DNA from: Rhodocyclales bacterium
Lineage (GTDB): Bacteria; Pseudomonadota; Gammaproteobacteria; Burkholderiales; Rhodocyclaceae
Direction of reading: 5' to 3'
DNA length: 28,118 nt
NCBI GenBank assembly: GCA_016177805.1
Contig: JACOUN010000036.1
Coordinates: 1 to 28,118 of the forward strand
Below are positions 6,153-28,118 of the stretch, one piece after another (within the stretch, counting starts at the first letter, position 1; every line of letters starts with the position of its first letter). Under the pieces are notes generated by a model. That model had not been told where the DNA came from. It made no database searches and worked only from the letters and a program-made list of their open reading frames with translations. Position numbers and translations under genes: made by a program.

Positions 6153-6216
6153 TGGAGCGGGACTCGAACCCGCAACACGTTGCATATGCAACCGCTCTAC
6201 CCATTGAGCTATCCAG
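6153..6216 (-). ncRNA. tRNA-like element A (64 nt): canonical D-arm and T-arm, with shortened acceptor and anticodon-equivalent arms.
   Basis: Minus-sense sequence: CTGGA TA GCTC AATGGGT AGAGC G GTTGC-ATAT-GCAAC GTGTT GCGGG TTCGAGT CCCGC TCCA. The D-loop keeps the GG pair, and the T-loop TTCGAGT matches T-psi-C-G-A. The anticodon region is a 5-bp palindromic hairpin with a 4-nt loop, so no 7-nt anticodon loop exists. The acceptor helix is only 4-5 bp. It therefore cannot be a functional tRNA. Confidence 0.6.
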
Positions 6217-6546: not shown

Positions 6547-8139
6547 ATGAAGAAGACGGTGGTGATCGGTTTTCTCGGGACTCAGCTCGACTACTCGGGG
6601 AATGGGGCCAAGCGGTGGGAGAGGTGGCGCCCCACCGTCAGCCTGTGCCAGCACGACGATCTGCTGGTGAGCCGGCTGGAACTGCTGCACGATGCACGTC
6701 GCCGGGGGTTGGCCGAGCGCGTCGCGCTCGACATCGCCAGCGTTTCACCGGAAACGCAAGTGCGCCGGGTTGAAACCGCGATCCGCGACCCGTGGGATTT
6801 CGAGGAGGTGTACACCGCGCTGCACGACTACGCGCGCGGCTACCCGTTCGACGTGGATAACGAGGACTACCTGATCCACATCACCACCGGCACCCACGTG
6901 GCGCAGATCTGCTGGTTCCTGCTGGCCGAGGCGCATTACCTGCCGGCACGGCTGCTGCAGACCTCGCCGCCACGCAAGCAGGCGCCGGCCGATTCGGTGG
7001 GCAGCTACACCCTGATCGATCTGGATCTGTCGCGTTACAACAAGATCGCGCAACGCTTCAGGCGTGAAGCCGAAGAAACCGTGACCCAGCTCAAGTCCGG
7101 CATCGCCACGCGCAACGCGCGCTTCAACGACATGATTGCGCAGATCGAGCACGTCGCCGGGCGCTCCTCCGCGCCGATGCTGCTCATCGGCCCGACCGGG
7201 GCGGGCAAGTCGTTTCTGGCCCGGCGCATCTTTGAGCTGAAGGTGCAGCGTCAGCGTTTCGCGGGTCGCTTCGTCGAAATCAACTGCGCCACGTTGCGCG
7301 GCGATTCAGCCATGTCGGCGCTGTTCGGTCACGTCAAGGGGGCGTTCACCGGGGCGCAGAGCGAGCGGCCGGGGTTGTTGCGTTCGGCGCATCAGGGGTT
7401 GCTGTTTCTCGATGAAATCGGGGAATTGGGCCTGGATGAGCAGGCCATGCTGCTCAAGGCGGTCGAGGAGAAACGCTTCTTCCCGTTCGGCGGCGACCGC
7501 GAGGTGGATAGCGACTTCCAGCTCATCGCCGGAACCCACCGCGATCTGCGGCAATGGGTGGCCGAAGGCCGTTTTCGCGAAGACCTCTACGCCCGCATCA
7601 ATCTGTGGACCTTCGATCTGCCGGGGTTGGCGGCGCGGCGCGAAGACATCGAACCGAACATCGATTTTGAACTGCGCCGCTATGCCGAAGCCGAAAACCA
7701 GCAGGTGCGCTTCAACGTCGAAGCGCGTCAGGCTTACTTGCGCTTCTGCAGCTCTGCCGAAGCGCGCTGGCCCGGCAATTTCCGCGAGCTGTCCGCGTCG
7801 ATCACGCGCCTGGCGACGCTAAGCGATGCGGGGCGCATCACCGTCGAGCATGTGCACGAGGAGATCGCCCGCCTGCGCCGCAGTTGGGGGGGGGATGAGT
7901 CCGGGGGCGGAGTGCTGAGCGCATTGCTGGGTGAGCGTGCGGAACAGATCGATCTGTTCGATCGCGCCCAGTTGTCCGCCGTGATCGCGGTGTGCCAGGC
8001 GTCGAACAGCCTGTCCGACGCCGGGCGCAAGCTGTTCGCGGTGTCACGTCAGGGAAAGAAGCAGCCCAACGACGCGGACCGGCTGCGCAAGTATCTGGCG
8101 CGATTCGGTCTGGATTGGGCTGCGCTCAGCGGCGCTTGA
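6547..8139 (+). CDS. rtcR: RtcR: a sigma54-dependent transcriptional activator with an N-terminal CARF domain, a AAA+ sigma54-interaction domain and a C-terminal HTH.
   Basis: The N-terminus (MKKTVVIGFLGTQLDYSGNGAKRWERWRPT...IASVSPETQV...PWDFEEVY...YLIHITTGTHVAQICWFLLAEA) matches my recollection of E. coli RtcR. Walker A GPTGAGKS and an ESELFGH-like SALFGH motif are present. Confidence 0.95.
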   Translation: MKKTVVIGFLGTQLDYSGNGAKRWERWRPTVSLCQHDDLLVSRLELLHDARRRGLAERVALDIASVSPETQVRRVETAIRDPWDFEEVYTALHDYARGYPFDVDNEDYLIHITTGTHVAQICWFLLAEAHYLPARLLQTSPPRKQAPADSVGSYTLIDLDLSRYNKIAQRFRREAEETVTQLKSGIATRNARFNDMIAQIEHVAGRSSAPMLLIGPTGAGKSFLARRIFELKVQRQRFAGRFVEINCATLRGDSAMSALFGHVKGAFTGAQSERPGLLRSAHQGLLFLDEIGELGLDEQAMLLKAVEEKRFFPFGGDREVDSDFQLIAGTHRDLRQWVAEGRFREDLYARINLWTFDLPGLAARREDIEPNIDFELRRYAEAENQQVRFNVEARQAYLRFCSSAEARWPGNFRELSASITRLATLSDAGRITVEHVHEEIARLRRSWGGDESGGGVLSALLGERAEQIDLFDRAQLSAVIAVCQASNSLSDAGRKLFAVSRQGKKQPNDADRLRKYLARFGLDWAALSGA

Positions 8140-8185
8140 GGGGCGTGCGCGGCTGAGCTGTTCGTCGACGCCCGGTGTGCGGCTG

Positions 8186-8210
8186 TCGCGGCTGAAGCCG
8201 CTTCTGCGGA
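8186..8210. terminator. Candidate bidirectional hairpin between the convergent rtcR and the 141-aa gene.
   Basis: GCGGC-tgaa-GCCGC followed by TTCT, overlapping CCGC-ttct-GCGG. It is short and weak. Confidence 0.2.
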
Positions 8211-8260
8211 CACGCAGTCCGGTTGCCTCGCAGGAGGAGCTTCAGCCCCGAACACACTGC

Positions 8261-8686
8261 TCAGACGAAACGAACCGGCAGGCCCTGCTTGTCGAACGCG
8301 AGGAAGCGCTGGATCTGGCCGTTCTCGATGTTCTTGACCATCAGTTCCAGCGCCTGCTGGGCTTGTTCGCTGGTCAGCGGGATGCCGTTCTGACCGTCCA
8401 GCGCGGCGACGAACATGACGTGCCAGTCGCGCCCGGTGGCCCTGGATTCGTCCAGCAGCGCGGCGAAGTTGGCGACTTCTTCCTGGGCCTTGTCCACGTA
8501 CATCACCGGCGAGAGCGTGCCGCCCTGGCCGCGCGAGTAGCGTTGGGCTTCGTCCGGGGTGTGTTCGCCGGGCAGTTCGGCGGTCGTGAACACGAACAGC
8601 AGCCGTTGCGGTTCGGCTTGCTGGGCGGCGACGAGCAGGAAGTCGTCGAAATGGGTCAGTTCCATGATGGCGTCCGTTGCGGGCAA
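8261..8686 (-). CDS. Hypothetical protein (about 134-141 aa), acidic and soluble.
   Basis: The ORF reads [16 protein letters not shown]...[30 protein letters not shown]. The start is either ATG 8686 or ATG 8665. It converges on rtcR. I recognise no family. Confidence 0.55.
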
Positions 8687-8780
8687 AAGCGGAATTTTAC
8701 GCGAGCCGGTGCGGCCTTGCCCGTCCGCCCGCCGGATTTGTTGGTGGTGTGCCCAACATCACAACCGCCGCACCTCTGGT

Positions 8781-9709
<929 letters not shown>

Positions 9710-9713
<4 letters not shown>

Positions 9714-10471
9714 ACCTGTACGCGATCCGTGCCATCTACCGCTTTGAAATGGCCCGCGCGTGGCGCACGCTGACGCAAAGCATCATCTCGCCGGTGCTGT
9801 CGACCTCGCTCTACTTCGTGGTGTTCGGCGCGGCGATCGGTTCGCGCATTCCCGAGGTGGAAGGGGTGAGCTACGGCAGTTTCATCGTGCCGGGGCTGAT
9901 GATGCTGGCGCTGCTGACCCAGAGCATCGCCAACGCCTCGTTCGGCATATTCTTTCCGCGCTTCACCGGCGCGATCTACGAGGTGCTGTCGGCGCCCGTG
10001 TCGTACCTGGAAATCGTGGTGGCCTACGTCGGGGCGGCGGCGACCAAGTCGCTGGTTCTCGGGGTCATCATCTTGATCACGGCGAGCCTGTTCGTGCCGC
10101 TGCGCATCGAGCATCCTCTGTGGATGGTGCTGTTCCTGCTGCTGACCACCGTGACCTTCAGCCTGCTCGGCTTCATCATCGGCATCTGGGCGGACAACTT
10201 CGAGAAGCTGCAACTGGTGCCGATGCTGGTCGTCACCCCGCTGACCTTCCTCGGCGGCACCTTCTACTCGATCAGCATGCTGCCGCCGTTCTGGCAGACC
10301 GTGACCCTGTTCAACCCGGTGGTGTATCTGGTGAGCGGCTTTCGCTGGAGCTTCTTCGGCATTGCCGATGTCGAACCGGCGCTGAGCCTGGGCATGACCT
10401 TGTTGTTCCTCGGGGTGTGCGTCGCCATCGTGGCGTGGATATTCAGGACCGGCTACCGGCTCAAGCCGTGA
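9710..10471 (+). CDS. ABC-2-type transporter permease (YadH-like), 6 TM.
   Basis: Hydrophobic 253-aa product. Its start overlaps the ATPase stop (ATGA). The ABC-2 family is assigned from size and topology. Confidence 0.88.
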
Positions 10472-10557
10472 CGGGCGCCGACCGTTGCATGCTCCGTCAT
10501 CGCGCTGCAACCTTGCTGCCATGTGACTGACATGATCGCCGCGCACACTGCGCGGCA

Positions 10558-11370
10558 ATGCGATTCAAAACAGTCTTCATCTCCGATGTCCACCTGGGTA
10601 CGCGAGCGTGCCAGGCGGGCCGTCTGCTTGATTTCCTGCGCCACCATCCATGTGATCAGCTCTATCTGGTGGGCGACATCATCGACTTCTGGTCCATGTC
10701 GCGCGGCATCCACTGGACGCGCGAGCAGAACACGGTGGTGCAGAAGGTGTTGCGCATGGCGCGTCACGGCACTCGGGTGTGGTTCATCCCCGGCAACCAT
10801 GACGAGGCCCTGCGCGACTACTGCGGATCGGTCTTCGGCGACATCCACCTGCTTGACGAAGCCATCCACACGACCGCCGACGGGCGTCGTTTGCTGGTGG
10901 TGCACGGCGACGCGTTCGACCAGGTCACCTACCACCACCGCTGGGTCGCGGTGCTGGGGGACATCGGCTACAACACCCTGGTACGCCTGAACATCTGGCT
11001 CTCGCGGATGCGGCGGTTGCTCGGAATCAGCGGCTACTGGTCGCTGGCGGGCTACGCCAAGCAGAAGGTCAAGCGCGCGCTCGAATTCGTGTTCGATTTC
11101 GAGGATTCGGTGATCCATCACGTGCGTGATCGCGAACTCGATGGTGTGGTGTGCGGACACATCCACTGGCCCGCCGTCAAGGACTGCGACGGCACGCTCT
11201 ACGCCAACTGCGGCGACTGGGTGGACTCGTGCTCGGCGCTGGTCGAGGACGCAAGCGGTGCCTTGCGAGTGGTGCGCTGGCACCCCGGCATGTCACAGCC
11301 GGTCATCGAAGAGCCGGTGGGCGAGGTGCCTGAAGTCGTACCCGAGGAGGAGGCCGCATGCGTGTCCTGA
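10558..11370 (+). CDS. LpxH-like calcineurin-type metallophosphoesterase (UDP-2,3-diacylglucosamine diphosphatase family).
   Basis: The N-terminus FISDVHLG, then GDIIDFW, GNHDE, HGD and a GHIHWPA motif. The stop overlaps the GT4 start by 13 nt. Confidence 0.8.
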   Translation: MRFKTVFISDVHLGTRACQAGRLLDFLRHHPCDQLYLVGDIIDFWSMSRGIHWTREQNTVVQKVLRMARHGTRVWFIPGNHDEALRDYCGSVFGDIHLLDEAIHTTADGRRLLVVHGDAFDQVTYHHRWVAVLGDIGYNTLVRLNIWLSRMRRLLGISGYWSLAGYAKQKVKRALEFVFDFEDSVIHHVRDRELDGVVCGHIHWPAVKDCDGTLYANCGDWVDSCSALVEDASGALRVVRWHPGMSQPVIEEPVGEVPEVVPEEEAACVS

Positions 11371-12557
11371 TGCTCAGCGATGTGTACTTCCCGCGTATCA
11401 ACGGGGTGTCCACCTCGATCCAGACCTTTCGCCAGCGCTTGCCCGAGCATGGCATCGCCACCACCCTCGTCGCCCCGGTCTACGGCGGCGAAGGCGAGGG
11501 GGCGGATGACGTGATACGCATTGCCGGGCGCGCGGTGCCGGGCGACCCGGAGGACCGCATCATGCGCTGGCGCGACGCCTGCCGGGCGGTGGACCGCATG
11601 CCGCTGGACGACTACGACGCGATCCATATCCAGACCCCGTTTCTCGCCCACTACCTCGGTGTGCGCCTGCGCCGCCGCACCGGCTTGCCGACCCTCGTCA
11701 CCTATCACACGCTGTTCGAGGACTATCTGCATCACTACGCGCCATGGCTGCCCCGTGCCGCGCTGCGCGCGCTCGCGCGCCGGTTGTCGTGCCGCCAGTG
11801 CAACGGGGTTGATGCGGTGATCGCGCCGTCGACCGCGATGGCCGGGCGTCTGCGCGAGTACGGCGTGCAAAGTCCGGTGCACGTCCTGCCCACCGGCATA
11901 CCGGTCGCGCATTACGCCAAGGGCAGCGGCGCGCGCTTTCGCGCCCGCCACGGGCTCGATCCCGCGCGTCCGCTGGCGCTGTACGTGGGGCGTCTGGCGT
12001 TCGAGAAGAACCTGCACTTCCTGCTCGACGTCGCCGAGCATGCGCGTGGCATGGGGTCGGACGTGTGCATGTTGCTGGCGGGTGACGGGCCGGCCAACGC
12101 CGCGCTGCGCGACGCGGTCAAGCGCCGGGGGCTGGGCGGGCAGGTCGCCTTCGCCGGCTATCTGTCGCGCGATGACGAACTGCCCGACTGCTATGCCGCC
12201 GCCGATGCGTTCGTGTTTGCCTCCAAGACCGAAACCCAGGGTCTGGTCCTGCTCGAAGCCATGGCGGCCGGGGTTCCCGTGGTGTGCCTGCGCGAGATGG
12301 GGGTGCGGGATGTGGTGGCCAACTGTGCGGCGGCCCGCACCCCGCCGGACGACGCGCCTGCCTTCGCCCGCGCGCTGCTCGACCTGCTGGCCGATCCGGC
12401 ACGTGGTACGGTCCTGGCGGATGCGGCGCGACAACATGCGGCGCAGTGGTCCGATACCGCCATGGCGGCGCGCCTGGCGACGTTGTATCGCCAGCTCGCG
12501 CCACGTTCCGCGCGCGCAGCTCACCTGCCCTTGCAGGGCAAACCGCTCGAAGGTTGA
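11358..12557 (+). CDS. Family 4 (GT-B) glycosyltransferase.
   Basis: The product starts MRVLMLSDVYFPRINGVS and carries the EX7E-like region FASKTETQGLVLLEAMAAGVPVV. A strong GAGGAGGAGG SD lies inside the upstream gene's 3' end. Confidence 0.88.
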   Translation: MRVLMLSDVYFPRINGVSTSIQTFRQRLPEHGIATTLVAPVYGGEGEGADDVIRIAGRAVPGDPEDRIMRWRDACRAVDRMPLDDYDAIHIQTPFLAHYLGVRLRRRTGLPTLVTYHTLFEDYLHHYAPWLPRAALRALARRLSCRQCNGVDAVIAPSTAMAGRLREYGVQSPVHVLPTGIPVAHYAKGSGARFRARHGLDPARPLALYVGRLAFEKNLHFLLDVAEHARGMGSDVCMLLAGDGPANAALRDAVKRRGLGGQVAFAGYLSRDDELPDCYAAADAFVFASKTETQGLVLLEAMAAGVPVVCLREMGVRDVVANCAAARTPPDDAPAFARALLDLLADPARGTVLADAARQHAAQWSDTAMAARLATLYRQLAPRSARAAHLPLQGKPLEG

Positions 12558-12609
12558 CCCGATTGCGCGGCGTCGGGGCGCTGGCTGGGGTGAGGTGGTG
12601 CGGAGGCAC

Positions 12610-13140
12610 TCAGAACGACTGGCCGGGACTCGGGGCCGAGACTGGCGGCGGCCCGCTTTGCGGCATCCAGAAGTGTGGATCGACCGGACCGCTGGTCAGC
12701 ACCAGCACCGCCAGCAGCGACAGGGTGGCACCGAGCGTGAGCACGGTGCGCAGCGGCAGATACCAGTGGGGGATGGCGCGGCTCTGGGCCAGATGCACGT
12801 CCAGGCCGTAGTGCACCCAATACACCGCCAGCAGCACCCCGATGTCCAGCCCCACCGGCAGCAGCATCGCGCTCCAGCCCGCCAGCGCCGGGATCACGCT
12901 CCAGCCCATCAAACGCCACTGATCGGTACGGGAGGTGCGCGGCATCATCATCGCGAAGCCCCAGTGCAACGCGCCGATGAAGGTGAGTATGGTCGCGCCG
13001 TAGCCCACCAGTGCGACGTGCACGAAGGCGCTGCCACTGGGGGTACGCACCCGCCATATGGCGAGCGCGACGAAGATGACCAGCCCACCCACTCCAAGCC
13101 AGCGAGCAGCGGACGGTAGCGGAGCGGGGATGCGTTGCAT
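12610..13140 (-). CDS. DUF3429-family membrane protein (about 176 aa).
   Basis: The product reads MQRIPAPLPSAARWLGVGGLVIFVALAIW...GALHWGF, typical of DUF3429. An AGGAGG SD precedes ATG 13140. The six-frame ORF extends further, but the upstream ATGs lack an SD. Confidence 0.75.
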   Translation of the reverse strand: MQRIPAPLPSAARWLGVGGLVIFVALAIWRVRTPSGSAFVHVALVGYGATILTFIGALHWGFAMMMPRTSRTDQWRLMGWSVIPALAGWSAMLLPVGLDIGVLLAVYWVHYGLDVHLAQSRAIPHWYLPLRTVLTLGATLSLLAVLVLTSGPVDPHFWMPQSGPPPVSAPSPGQSF

Positions 13141-13361
13141 GGCTGCCTCCTGTGCTGTTGTTGGTATGACACGGTGGCAGCGGTTGCGTTCGTGTCCGCA
13201 CTGTCCGGCGATCCGGCACCGGAGCTGCGTGCGCATGCGGGCCGCGTTGCAGCAATGGTCGCGGACCAGTCATGCATGTCCGGAATCATATCGTCGTTCG
13301 TCTTGGCGTTTCGCGTTTTGCGCGCCGGATCAAAAAACTGGCGTTGTTACGATTCGCTACA

Positions 13362-25152: not shown

Positions 25153-26115
25153 ATGATCGCAGGTGTTTTGTGTGCCCTGGGCGCCGGGCTGATGTGGGGG
25201 CTGATATTCCTGGTGCCGTTGATACTGGGTGACTACCCGCCGGTGGTGCTGGCGTTCGGCCGTTACGTGGCGTTCGGCCTGCTGGCGGTGGGGCTGGCGT
25301 GGTTCGATCGGCGCGCGCTGGCACGCCTGACGCGGGACGACTGGAAGGAGGCCGCCAGGCTCGCGCTGGTGGGCAACCTGCTGTACTACGGCACCCTGGC
25401 GGCGGCTATACAGTTGGCGGGGGCGCAGGTGCCAGCGCTGATCATCGGCACCTTGCCGGTCGTCATCGCAATCACCGCCAACCTGGTCGAACAACGTAGC
25501 GGCGCGGATAACGGCGCGGTCCAGTGGCGGCGCCTGGCCTTGCCGCTGGCGATCATGTTCGCCGGCCTGGTGTTCGTGCAGCATGGCCCCGATGGCGTGG
25601 CGGAACCCGCGCGGGCACCGGGGGTTTCCTACGTGAGCGGGCTGCTGCTCGCGCTGTGCGCGCTGCTGTGCTGGACCTGGTACCCACTGCGTAACAGCCG
25701 CTGGCTGCGCGCCCGTCCACCCGGACTGTCGCGCGCCTGGGCGACCGCCCAGGGCTTGGCGACCCTGCCGCTGGCCGTGCTGGCGGCGCTGGGTTATGCG
25801 GTCTGGGAGTGGCTGGCGCACGAGGCCGGGGGGCGCTACGCGTGGCCGTTCGGAGCGCGTCCGGGCATGTACGTCGGACTGATGGTGCTGACCGGCCTTG
25901 CGGCCTCGTGGCTGGGGACGCTGTTGTGGAACAAGGCCAGCCATCTGCTACCGGCGCCTCTGGTGGGGCAGTTGATCGTGTTCGAGACGCTGGCGGCGTT
26001 GCTTTATGCCTTTGCCTGGGAGGCACGCTGGCCTGTGGCATACGAGGTCGTGGGGATCGTGTTGCTGGTGGGTGGGGTGTTGCTCGGTGTGAGGATTTTT
26101 CGTGCGTCTGACTGA
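25153..26115 (+). CDS. DMT-superfamily (EamA-like) transporter, 320 aa, 10 TM.
   Basis: Hydrophobic duplicated 5-TM architecture starting MIAGVLCALGAGLMWGLIFLVP. The six-frame ORF starts earlier, but the upstream part is non-hydrophobic and lacks an SD. Confidence 0.8.
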   Translation: MIAGVLCALGAGLMWGLIFLVPLILGDYPPVVLAFGRYVAFGLLAVGLAWFDRRALARLTRDDWKEAARLALVGNLLYYGTLAAAIQLAGAQVPALIIGTLPVVIAITANLVEQRSGADNGAVQWRRLALPLAIMFAGLVFVQHGPDGVAEPARAPGVSYVSGLLLALCALLCWTWYPLRNSRWLRARPPGLSRAWATAQGLATLPLAVLAALGYAVWEWLAHEAGGRYAWPFGARPGMYVGLMVLTGLAASWLGTLLWNKASHLLPAPLVGQLIVFETLAALLYAFAWEARWPVAYEVVGIVLLVGGVLLGVRIFRASD

Positions 26116-26475: not shown

Positions 26476-26775
26476 ATGAAGCTAAAAATCTACACCGCCG
26501 CCGAGGTTCGCGAGCTACGCCGCAAGAGCGGCCAGACCCAATACAAGTTCTGGCAATGCCTGCACATCACACAGAGCGGCGGCAGTCGGTATGAGTCGGG
26601 GCACAAGATGCCGGCGCCCGTACAACTGCTGTTGAACATAACCTTTGGCACAGAAGCCAAGTCTGCGGCCTGCGTTAACGCGCTGCGCGAGCTGGCGAAG
26701 CCGCCGAAGAAGACAAAGGCTCCGAAACCGGCGAAACCGGCGAAAGAGGTGACCGCGTTTGGCATGCTGCCATGA
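26476..26775 (+). CDS. Small XRE-family helix-turn-helix DNA-binding protein (99 aa) with a Lys/Pro/Ala-rich basic C-terminal tail.
   Basis: A GGAG SD lies 10 nt upstream. The HTH reads VRELRRKSGQTQYKFWQCLHITQSGGSRYESGHKMPAPVQLLL. The tail reads KPPKKTKAPKPAKPAKE. Confidence 0.7.
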   Translation: MKLKIYTAAEVRELRRKSGQTQYKFWQCLHITQSGGSRYESGHKMPAPVQLLLNITFGTEAKSAACVNALRELAKPPKKTKAPKPAKPAKEVTAFGMLP

Positions 26776-27081
26776 CGATGCGGGACGAAACGCCATTGCG
26801 GCCGACCATCCGACCGCGATGGCCCCCGACCCGTGAATCAGTCACGGTGTTGACGGACGCCAGCCTTCCCGGAATGGCGGTAGCAGACGGCTCGTCGAGC
26901 GCCTGAGGACGCACGCTGCGCAATGGGCTGCCCAAGACGTGCACAGGAACACACCGAACATGACATCGCCCATCGCCCGGCAACGGCCTGGCGTACCCAA
27001 CCCCTACAGCGGCGTAGCGCCGAAGCGCCAGCGCAGCGCTCCGATCACGCTTCAGATGGCGCCGAGCGGCTGCCTTCAGGT

Positions 27082-27861
27082 ATGTTGAATAAGCTCCGCG
27101 CGCAGTTTCCCCGGCTCGAAGGGCCGCTCCTTACGGGCCTGAGTCCGTTCACCCTACGCGGTGAGGTGATCGGATGGATCGTCCGGATCGGGCGGCAAGG
27201 CATCTTGTTTCAGCGGGATTTCTGGGCCTCGACCCATTGCGGCATGGAGGCGGCTTTTCGCGCCGCGTCCGCCTACCGGGATGAGGTCGATCGGGACTAC
27301 CCCCGGCTGTCGAGCGCCGAGCGATGCACGACGCTGCGCGCCAACAATACCAGCGGGATCCCAGGGGTAAGCCGGCAGATGGTGGAAGGCAGGCCGTACT
27401 GGGTGGCGGAAGTGGGCGTTCGGGGATACAAGAAGGCGCGCCGCTTCTCCATCCGCAAGTATGGCGACGAGCGTGCCCGGAATCTGGCGATCGAGGCCCG
27501 CCGCGCGCTCCTCGCGCACGTGCAAACCCTGCAAGAGCGTCGGGCCGAGCGGTCCCCACTTGAATCTGCGCAGCCCGAAAACCTGCCCCTGGCGCGGGCC
27601 GCGCTGCGCGGCTTTCCGTGGCCGAATCCCCATGTGCATCGTGCCAGTGGTGTTCTGGGTGTGCGGCTCATGCGCGCCGAACACGTGCGCAAGGACGGAA
27701 CGGTGTCGGTTGCCGAACACTGGATGGCCTCGATGAAGGTTGCCGAGCGGACCTATCGCGCCTGTTTCTCCGTGAAACGCTTCGGCAACGAAGAGGCCAT
27801 GCGTCTGGCGATCGAGCAGCGCAGGGCATGGGAGGCCGAGTACAGAAAACCCCGACGCTGA
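27082..27861 (+). CDS. Protein with three tandem AP2 (Apetala-2/ERF-like) DNA-binding domains, about 259 aa.
   Basis: Three repeats of the AP2 pattern are present. Two examples are SGIPGVSRQMVEGRPYWVAEVGVRGYKKARRFSIRKYGDERARNLAIEARRAL and SGVLGVRLMRAEHV...WMASMKVAERTYRACFSVKRFGNEEAMRLAIEQRRAWE. The first repeat contains GWIVRIGRQGILFQRDFW...EAAFRAASAYRDE. An alternative upstream start at 26923 exists. Confidence 0.65.
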   Translation: MLNKLRAQFPRLEGPLLTGLSPFTLRGEVIGWIVRIGRQGILFQRDFWASTHCGMEAAFRAASAYRDEVDRDYPRLSSAERCTTLRANNTSGIPGVSRQMVEGRPYWVAEVGVRGYKKARRFSIRKYGDERARNLAIEARRALLAHVQTLQERRAERSPLESAQPENLPLARAALRGFPWPNPHVHRASGVLGVRLMRAEHVRKDGTVSVAEHWMASMKVAERTYRACFSVKRFGNEEAMRLAIEQRRAWEAEYRKPRR

Positions 27862-28009: not shown

Positions 28010-28039
28010 TTGACATAGCGAAACGAGCTGACGCACAAT
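28010..28039 (+). promoter_or_regulatory. Candidate sigma70 promoter (TTGACA-N18-CACAAT) for the last gene, with an adjacent inverted repeat GTAATTATTTTGAGTTAC at 27989..28006.
   Basis: A perfect -35 hexamer and a 4/6 -10 match, about 30 nt upstream of ATG 28072. Confidence 0.3.
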
Positions 28040-28071
28040 CGCCGAAATCCCAATCATCCTAGGCGTACATC

Positions 28072-28118
28072 ATGAACCGCATTCTCGTTGCGCATACCCC
28101 GCTGGGTAAAGCCCTATG
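28072..28118 (+). CDS. Start of an unidentified protein (MNRILVAHTPLGKAL...), truncated by the window end.
   Basis: An ATG with a putative upstream promoter. Only 15 codons are visible. Confidence 0.3.
   Translation, partial: MNRILVAHTPLGKAL

Follow-up and report, generated by a model that had tools for sequence, protein, structure and literature searches.

The three-AP2 gene and its locus

The window analysed here is a stretch of 28,118 nucleotides (nt) from a Rhodocyclales bacterium of the family Rhodocyclaceae (positions 1 to 28,118 of contig JACOUN010000036.1, assembly GCA_016177805.1), and it comprises an entire contig of a metagenome-assembled genome. Close to its 3' end lies a gene for a protein of 259 amino acids (aa) made of three AP2-fold modules, termed here the three-AP2 protein. 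The gene is part of a co-oriented string that starts with a gene for an RsaL-like helix-turn-helix (HTH) protein, continues with the three-AP2 gene and probably ends with vgrG (Table 1). The 259-aa product is identical to the NCBI entry 'AP2 domain-containing protein [Rhodocyclales bacterium]'; it belongs to the AP2 superfamily by its score and predicted fold and is an ordinary member, already annotated as such.

The start codon of the gene is unsettled. NCBI starts the gene at the ATG at 27082. For identical DNA, the gene calls in Logan begin at the in-frame ATG at 26923, which gives an open reading frame (ORF) of 312 aa at 26923-27861 on the forward strand. The extra segment, 26923-27081, has a GC content at third codon positions (GC3) of 0.585, which is not coding-like. 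The orthologues have no ATG at the position of 27082 and start 27-37 codons farther upstream. The protein is strongly basic, with 48 Lys and Arg residues versus 27 Asp and Glu residues (net charge +21, isoelectric point 10.98). An earlier reading made from the sequence only had placed the gene in a low-GC segment, a description that does not fit its GC content of 0.656. The window averages 0.647, and the gene falls on the 63rd percentile among windows of its size. Slightly low values are confined to the HTH gene (0.593) and the intergenic stretches, and the GC3 of the three-AP2 gene (0.77) is mildly reduced relative to neighbouring genes (0.82-0.90).

Table 1. Features of the AP2 locus in the window and location of a recurrent upstream gene at related loci
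Feature	Location	Strand	Remarks
HTH_92 gene	26476..26775	+	RsaL-like, 99 aa, directly upstream of the three-AP2 gene; Pfam HTH_92
Three-AP2 protein gene	27082..27861	+	259 aa plus stop; ORF list, Pfam AP2 (57.9 bits)
Module 1 (aa 18-75)	27133..27306	+	Divergent AP2-fold; TGLSPFTLRGEVIGWIVRIGRQGILFQRDF...AAFRAASAYRDEV
Module 2 (aa 89-150)	27346..27531	+	Canonical AP2; preceded by the family linker motif RxNNTSGIPGV
Linker (aa 151-187)	27532..27642	+	Helix extension, then disordered stretch; pLDDT below 50 at residues 158-187
Module 3 (aa 188-252)	27643..27837	+	AP2 with a longer first hairpin; Pfam and similarity to module 2
Promoter-like site	28010..28039	+	TTGACA, 18 nt spacer, CACAAT; pattern match only
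Next gene, most likely vgrG	28072..28118	+	First 15 codons, MNRILVAHTPLGKAL; cut by the contig end
Upstream protein of 450-470 aa (other loci)	L036 2-1417; L038 3359-4690; L009 4534-5529; L092 3-1346		

Three AP2-fold modules

The whole protein matches the Pfam AP2 family (PF00847) with 57.9 bits and E=1.2e-15, for a gathering score of 33.3. It matches no other Pfam family and nothing in NCBIfam, PHROG or PADLOC, and it has no catalytic domain. Three AP2-fold modules are present, the first of which is divergent and missed by Pfam alone. The claim of the sequence-only reading that the protein consists of three AP2-type modules and no other domain is thereby upheld by the Pfam score, by profile alignments and by the predicted structure. 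Taken repeat by repeat, it stands directly for module 2, which alone scores 44.0 bits against Pfam AP2 (E=2.7e-11, profile positions 1-53 of 54). Module 3 alone reaches 21.8 bits (E=2.3e-4), under the cut-off by itself, and is related to module 2 by BLASTP (E=4e-8) and hhalign (E=5e-13). Module 1 scanned alone gives no match in Pfam and no sequence match in the PDB, and is tied to the other two modules at profile level only. Profiles built from 14 homologues align it in register with them (W, then G..F, then the helix), with hhalign E-values of 3.2e-6 to module 3 and 1.3e-4 to module 2. The equivalent of module 1 matches Pfam AP2 on its own in three of 15 homologues, at best with E=2.8e-7.

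The AlphaFold2 model (predicted local distance difference test, pLDDT, 77.3) contains three units of three strands and one helix each. In the model they have the AP2 fold, in which three antiparallel strands pack on a C-terminal helix, and this fold also ties module 1 to the family. The modules are connected by one short and one disordered linker. Strands are predicted at residues 20-25, 28-38 and 41-48 of module 1, 96-101, 104-113 and 116-123 of module 2, and 194-202, 208-220 and 223-230 of module 3, followed by helices at 55-72, 129-157 and 236-255, respectively. Sequence searches of solved structures with the protein and with the module-1 profile returned only chance matches, to designed repeat proteins and 14-3-3. 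The PfSIP2-DNA complex 6sy0 is found among the structural matches.

All three modules are well conserved among homologues with 35-74% identity, which argues for a selected function and not for decay, and the linker at aa 151-187 is poorly conserved. Residues S91, G92, G95, V96, W107 and A109 of module 2 are invariant in the family alignment, and strand Trp and Arg positions, W107, R98 and R140 among others, are conserved.

Plant ERF/AP2 proteins and the apicomplexan ApiAP2 proteins, such as the tandem-AP2 protein PfSIP2, share the same domain by sequence at the score given above. Tandem domains also occur in the plant AP2 subfamily and in PfSIP2. The window protein differs from ERF and ApiAP2 proteins in being bacterial, only 259 aa long and devoid of activation, repression or other regions, and in having three modules with the first too divergent for Pfam. 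Compared by eye with AtERF1, module 2 has GVSRQ in place of GVRQR and AEVG in place of AEIR, so that several of the base-contacting residues of ERF are presumably replaced. By analogy with plant ERF and apicomplexan AP2 domains, each module would lay its three-stranded sheet into the major groove of DNA. It is very probable that the protein is a DNA-binding AP2 array.

A large family built on a two-module core

An exhaustive profile search covering 1.84 billion representatives, in which counts are clusters at 50% identity, found 5260 clusters of relatives at E<=1e-3, 1808 at 1e-10 and 232 at 1e-30; a word-indexed search found only 17 relatives. Hidden Markov models of the three modules were run over the top 161 proteins to define their architectures. 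Nearly all start with a module 1 - module 2 pair joined by the conserved linker P.(L/M)(S/T)..E.....R.NNTSG(I/V)PGV. The pair stands alone in 42 proteins of about 145 aa, is duplicated in 41, and is followed by one further AP2, like in the window protein, in 53; longer arrays account for about 15. The invariant core of the family is therefore a two-module unit (divergent AP2, RxNNTSGIPGV, canonical AP2) to which extra modules or a second unit are added. A Pfam scan of the top 150 members detected AP2 as the only domain in 146, and other domains just in single proteins, one with HNH and one with an integrase arm domain.

Owing to these cluster, architecture and AP2-only counts, stand-alone multi-AP2 proteins have to be regarded as common in bacteria. 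The sequence-only reading had taken a stand-alone triple AP2 protein to be uncommon and bacterial AP2 domains to be mainly modules of integrases and HNH endonucleases; neither statement survives the comparison. Bacterial AP2 is not mainly an appendage of integrases or homing endonucleases, since a large nuclease-free array family exists on a conserved two-module core. Half of this core is invisible to Pfam, and database domain counts are therefore too low. The family of stand-alone AP2 arrays is large and annotated, yet unstudied.

The loci fetched for comparison (designated by L numbers, and their proteins by P numbers) span Burkholderiales, Rhodocyclales, Pseudomonadales, Alphaproteobacteria, Verrucomicrobia, Planctomycetes and Actinomycetes. 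Full-length relatives were not found in the phage and plasmid collections searched. In phage genomes only the canonical module is matched, by HNH homing endonucleases (phages G7C, AR9 and PBS1), and in plasmids only the two-module unit, on Agrobacterium and Rhizobium megaplasmids.

PMC5318435, which cites Magnani et al. 2004, documents the link of AP2 to HNH homing endonucleases; it is from such AP2-HNH enzymes that AP2 is known in bacteria and phages. The AP2 domain of these endonucleases, which occur in phages, cyanobacteria and ciliates, is 40-42% identical to the canonical module over about 65 aa, and in one family member, P0014, the same two modules are fused to HNH/McrA. Unlike these enzymes, the window protein and 149 of its 150 top relatives carry no HNH or other nuclease domain, and the window gene is not inserted in another gene or intron, its context being chromosomal. 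Its identity as an AP2-HNH endonuclease was rejected, as Pfam finds only AP2 and HNH is absent. The arm-type domains of tyrosine integrases (HPI integrase, 3jtz; N-terminal domain of lambda Int) score below true AP2 domains. The identity of a tyrosine integrase was rejected too: the 259 aa are fully covered by the three AP2 modules and linkers, with no recombinase catalytic domain. The window protein is thus neither an AP2-HNH endonuclease nor an integrase, because the domains that define them are absent when tested for.

Association with type VI secretion genes

Neighbourhoods were compared in non-redundant loci of at least 5 kb, scoring VgrG, DUF2169, PAAR-like, Rhs or Tle1-like genes in the fetched flanks. 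Such type VI genes lie near ORFs with at least three modules in 12 of 18 loci (13 of 18 with the window counted) and near two-module ORFs in three of 25. The contrast has a Fisher p of 3e-4, or 0.006 after a rough collapse of related loci, and is to be read with the provision that the loci are interrelated, that flank lengths differ and that the comparison is made within the family, without random genes from the same genomes. In several Betaproteobacterial lineages, members with at least three modules thus show a strong association with type VI spike/effector clusters. The association is found in Rhodocyclaceae, four Paracidovorax species, Massilia and several metagenomic lineages.

The arrangement of these clusters varies. 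In L002, from a Rhodocyclaceae metagenome-assembled genome (JBKBMG010000018), the order is VgrG - DcrB - Rhs - small ORF - AP2. Paracidovorax citrulli has the order DUF2169 - Rhs (Tox-SHH) - 130-aa ORF - AP2, with related layouts in P. oryzae, P. cattleyae and P. valerianellae, the last having VgrG - DUF2169 - PAAR-like - four unknown ORFs - AP2. In Massilia violaceinigra, L014 and L056 the vgrG and AP2 genes are divergently transcribed, while L051 and its relatives combine VgrG with a Tle1-like phospholipase. Genes like those of integrative and conjugative elements (ICE-like genes: TraG, AlpA, ParA) are located farther along in Paracidovorax and L002.

The five-module AP2 and HTH_92 genes of L002 are tandemly duplicated (8001-13190, period 2262-2268 nt) directly after the VgrG-DcrB-Rhs effector string. 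The copies share 69% aa and about 80% nt identity. Behind a TsiV immunity gene comes a third, degraded copy, which consists of pieces of module 1 and HTH_92.

Four loci that otherwise differ (Table 1), among them the DUF2169 cluster of Paracidovorax cattleyae, encode a conserved protein of 450-470 aa without Pfam match directly before the AP2 gene or its HTH_92 partner. This protein may be a further partner associated with type VI secretion. The ORFs of one of the four, L038, have no Pfam matches.

Proximity to a spike gene raises the alternative that the three-AP2 protein is an RNA binder, or a type VI cargo or accessory protein encoded together with the spike gene, and not a regulator. Genes adjacent to vgrG often encode cargo effectors, adaptors and immunity proteins. 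However, the three-AP2 protein contains no toxin, PAAR, MIX or adaptor domain, the loci already hold recognisable effector and immunity genes, and many members, the two-module ones especially, are not near type VI genes. This alternative is the least credible of those considered, and very improbable.

The cut gene at the contig end

In the window the type VI link depends on the last gene, of which the contig holds 15 codons. These match the Pfam-annotated VgrG N-terminus of L002 (MHRPLVAHTPLRDAL) at 11 of 15 residues, and the nucleotide differences between the cut ORF and the L002 vgrG are mostly at third codon positions. An overlapping Logan contig with identical DNA, L089, adds four codons (…ALWAVA), which brings the identity to 13 of 19 residues with MHRPLVAHTPLRDALWVVS (…ALWVVS). 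L002 VgrG is also the best blastp-short match of the cut ORF among 9102 six-frame ORFs from all fetched loci. The same DNA in three other assemblies, with L088 and L089 concerned, breaks within about 10 nt of the same point, as would be expected if the next gene were a multi-copy vgrG. Judged by this N-terminal resemblance, the cut gene at 28072 very likely codes for VgrG, the type VI secretion spike.

A pattern match to a promoter lies in the 210-nt spacer between the AP2 gene and the cut gene (Table 1); a consensus scan found this one site for a chance expectation of 0.4.

The last ORF was also considered as a second AP2 paralogue with a leader like that of P0002, the AP2 protein of L001. 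This was rejected as, after codon 10, the ORF follows VgrG (ALWAVA versus ALWVVS) and not P0002. The 5' end of the P0002 gene is itself peculiar. Its start codon, the 8 bases upstream and about 12 codons, MNRNPVAHTPSG, resemble the vgrG start of the window (L001 417-460 versus window 28063-28110, 33 of 41 nt), whereas its homology to the AP2 locus of the window starts only about 52 nt before the ATG at 27082. The sequence gives the impression that deletion or recombination joined a vgrG 5' end to an AP2 gene. Compared upstream of their AP2 genes, the window and L001 share no gene.

The HTH_92 partner

The HTH gene directly upstream of the three-AP2 gene, which the sequence-only reading had correctly recognised as such, codes for a 99-aa protein that matches Pfam HTH_92 with 69.7 bits for a threshold of 27 (E=1.3e-19, profile positions 1-44 of 45) and a generic PHROG 'transcriptional regulator' with 4.5e-8. 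RsaL, the namesake of HTH_92, is a quorum-sensing repressor of Pseudomonas. The 99-aa protein is likewise small and single-domain, with its RsaL-like HTH matched over the full profile. In contrast to RsaL, no luxI or luxR genes stand beside its gene, whose partner is an AP2 array.

In the closest clade (L002/L007, L019, L036/L037), AP2-array genes likewise have homologous HTH_92 genes next to them. HTH_92 precedes AP2 in L036/L037, where stop and start codons overlap by 4 nt, and is found upstream of the AP2 gene in L019 as well. In L002 it is the AP2 gene that precedes HTH_92, also with a 4-nt overlap, and three HTH_92 copies are present.

Proposed function and its alternatives

The explanation that best accommodates these observations, about as likely as not to be right, is that the three-AP2 protein is a sequence-specific DNA-binding regulator without enzymatic activity which, together with its HTH_92 partner, controls the adjoining type VI spike/effector island. 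Taken by itself, a role tied to the type VI island is given chances that are even or slightly short of it. The three-module array would read a long composite DNA site, and the three-AP2 and HTH_92 proteins would regulate transcription of the adjoining vgrG-effector operon. Local regulators typically have the divergent layout that the vgrG and AP2 genes show in Massilia, L014 and L056, which fits such a role. Alternatively, the three-AP2 gene might be carried along as the type VI island's own DNA-binding cassette.

In a more general form, multi-module AP2 arrays, often with an HTH_92 partner, would be a dedicated DNA-binding cassette of vgrG/Rhs/Tle islands, acting either as a local switch or as a marker or mobiliser of effector-immunity cassettes. 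This generalisation is tentative and somewhat doubtful. If true, it would give bacterial AP2 domains their first function apart from that in homing endonucleases, and type VI secretion a new class of regulators. No paper combining 'AP2 domain' and 'T6SS' was found in the literature searched, and that multi-module arrays go together with type VI islands and HTH_92 appears unreported. The regulation and exchange of auxiliary vgrG-effector islands are poorly understood, and Paracidovorax citrulli offers a tractable candidate, a 262-aa homologue encoded straight after the Rhs effector-immunity pair.

Several observations weigh against the regulator. A repeated-motif search found no DNA target, the flanking spacers holding only short two-copy, chance-like matches; the divergent vgrG-AP2 spacers of L034, L014 and L056 share an AT-rich promoter-like block and contain no repeat array. 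In the window, vgrG is called from 15-19 codons, the VgrG domains lying past the contig end. The 8 kb downstream of the closest orthologue, L001 (74% identity), contain no HTH_92 gene and no type VI genes. Of the other relatives, some adjoin a prophage-like region and some, two-module forms, adjoin ordinary or housekeeping genes. The neighbourhood contrast comes from phylogenetically non-independent loci and has no random-gene control. The best structural matches of the protein include AP2 proteins that bind ribosomal RNA. In many loci, furthermore, the AP2 gene stands at the far 3' end of the effector/immunity string, which suits a passenger or boundary gene no less than a regulator.

The main rival to a regulator is a nuclease-free descendant of the DNA-binding modules of homing endonucleases that acts in cassette mobility. 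The array would then be the domesticated or decayed remnant of a selfish element which promotes, targets or regulates the movement or recombination of island cassettes, including Rhs/vgrG toxin-immunity cassettes, and not gene expression. The documented AP2-HNH endonucleases (PMC5318435), the HNH/McrA fusion of P0014 and the match of the canonical module to the phage enzymes all favour this descent. Mobility is also suggested by AP2 genes located at the edges of effector islands, beside ICE-like or prophage-like genes, by the tandem repeats with a degraded copy in L002 and by the vgrG-like 5' end of the L001 orthologue, which points to recombination between both genes; GC3 somewhat under that of neighbouring genes agrees with it. 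On the other hand, a nuclease domain is found in one of the 150 top members and an integrase arm domain in another one of 150, no PHROG entry matches the three-AP2 protein, no full-length relatives turned up in the phage and plasmid collections, and the three modules are conserved across the homologues. The absence of a visible integrase, which the sequence-only reading had reported, is corroborated: no integrase, transposase or phage gene was seen among the scanned window ORFs, and the last 8 kb of the window hold no transposase, integrase or nuclease. That reading had proposed a factor derived from a mobile element, which has only loose support: relatives do have accessory flanks such as ICE-like and prophage-like ones, whereas the recurring context is type VI vgrG/Rhs clusters and not phages or integrases. 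Taken as a whole, the sequence-only reading is supported in part. Altogether the selfish remnant is a rather unlikely account of the protein.

A third possibility is a general nucleoid-associated or silencing protein for acquired DNA, in which the basic AP2 array would coat or bridge DNA with low specificity. The very basic composition, the several DNA-binding modules on flexible linkers, the location of the gene in accessory regions and the failure of the spacer searches to detect a specific operator are all compatible with it. Yet the AP2 domains characterised so far, those of ERF and ApiAP2 proteins, are sequence-specific, and the 6sy0 complex is among the matches. The patchy distribution, often with several divergent paralogues per locus, is unlike that of a housekeeping nucleoid protein, and the array is paired with a specific HTH gene of the repressor type. 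Such a silencing function is improbable.

Other features of the window and of related loci

The window is otherwise ordinary chromosome, with rtcA, rtcB, an SPFH gene, rtcR, ABC transporters, a glycosyltransferase and acyl-CoA synthetases. It further carries a Liv-type transporter, Amt and an EamA transporter ending at 26115.

Two observations concern the neighbourhoods of other family members. In L092 (2946-10487) the three-module protein P0030 adjoins a prophage-like block coding for RecT, a PD-(D/E)XK nuclease, a CI-like repressor with an S24 peptidase domain and DUF1367. Among the loci with small two-module genes, mainly from Burkholderiales (L015-L031, L044-L072), genes of the TctC family, the tripartite tricarboxylate receptors, are nearby in 11 loci and LysR genes in five. 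Their proximity may only reflect the abundance of such genes in Burkholderiales.

The Rfam transfer RNA (tRNA) model matches the reverse strand of the window at 6153-6215 (40.8 bits, model positions 4-67), in the interval that separates the SPFH/rtcB/rtcA genes from the divergent rtcR. ARAGORN detects no tRNA anywhere in the window, and instead of a functional tRNA the match may represent a tRNA-like element belonging to the rtc locus.

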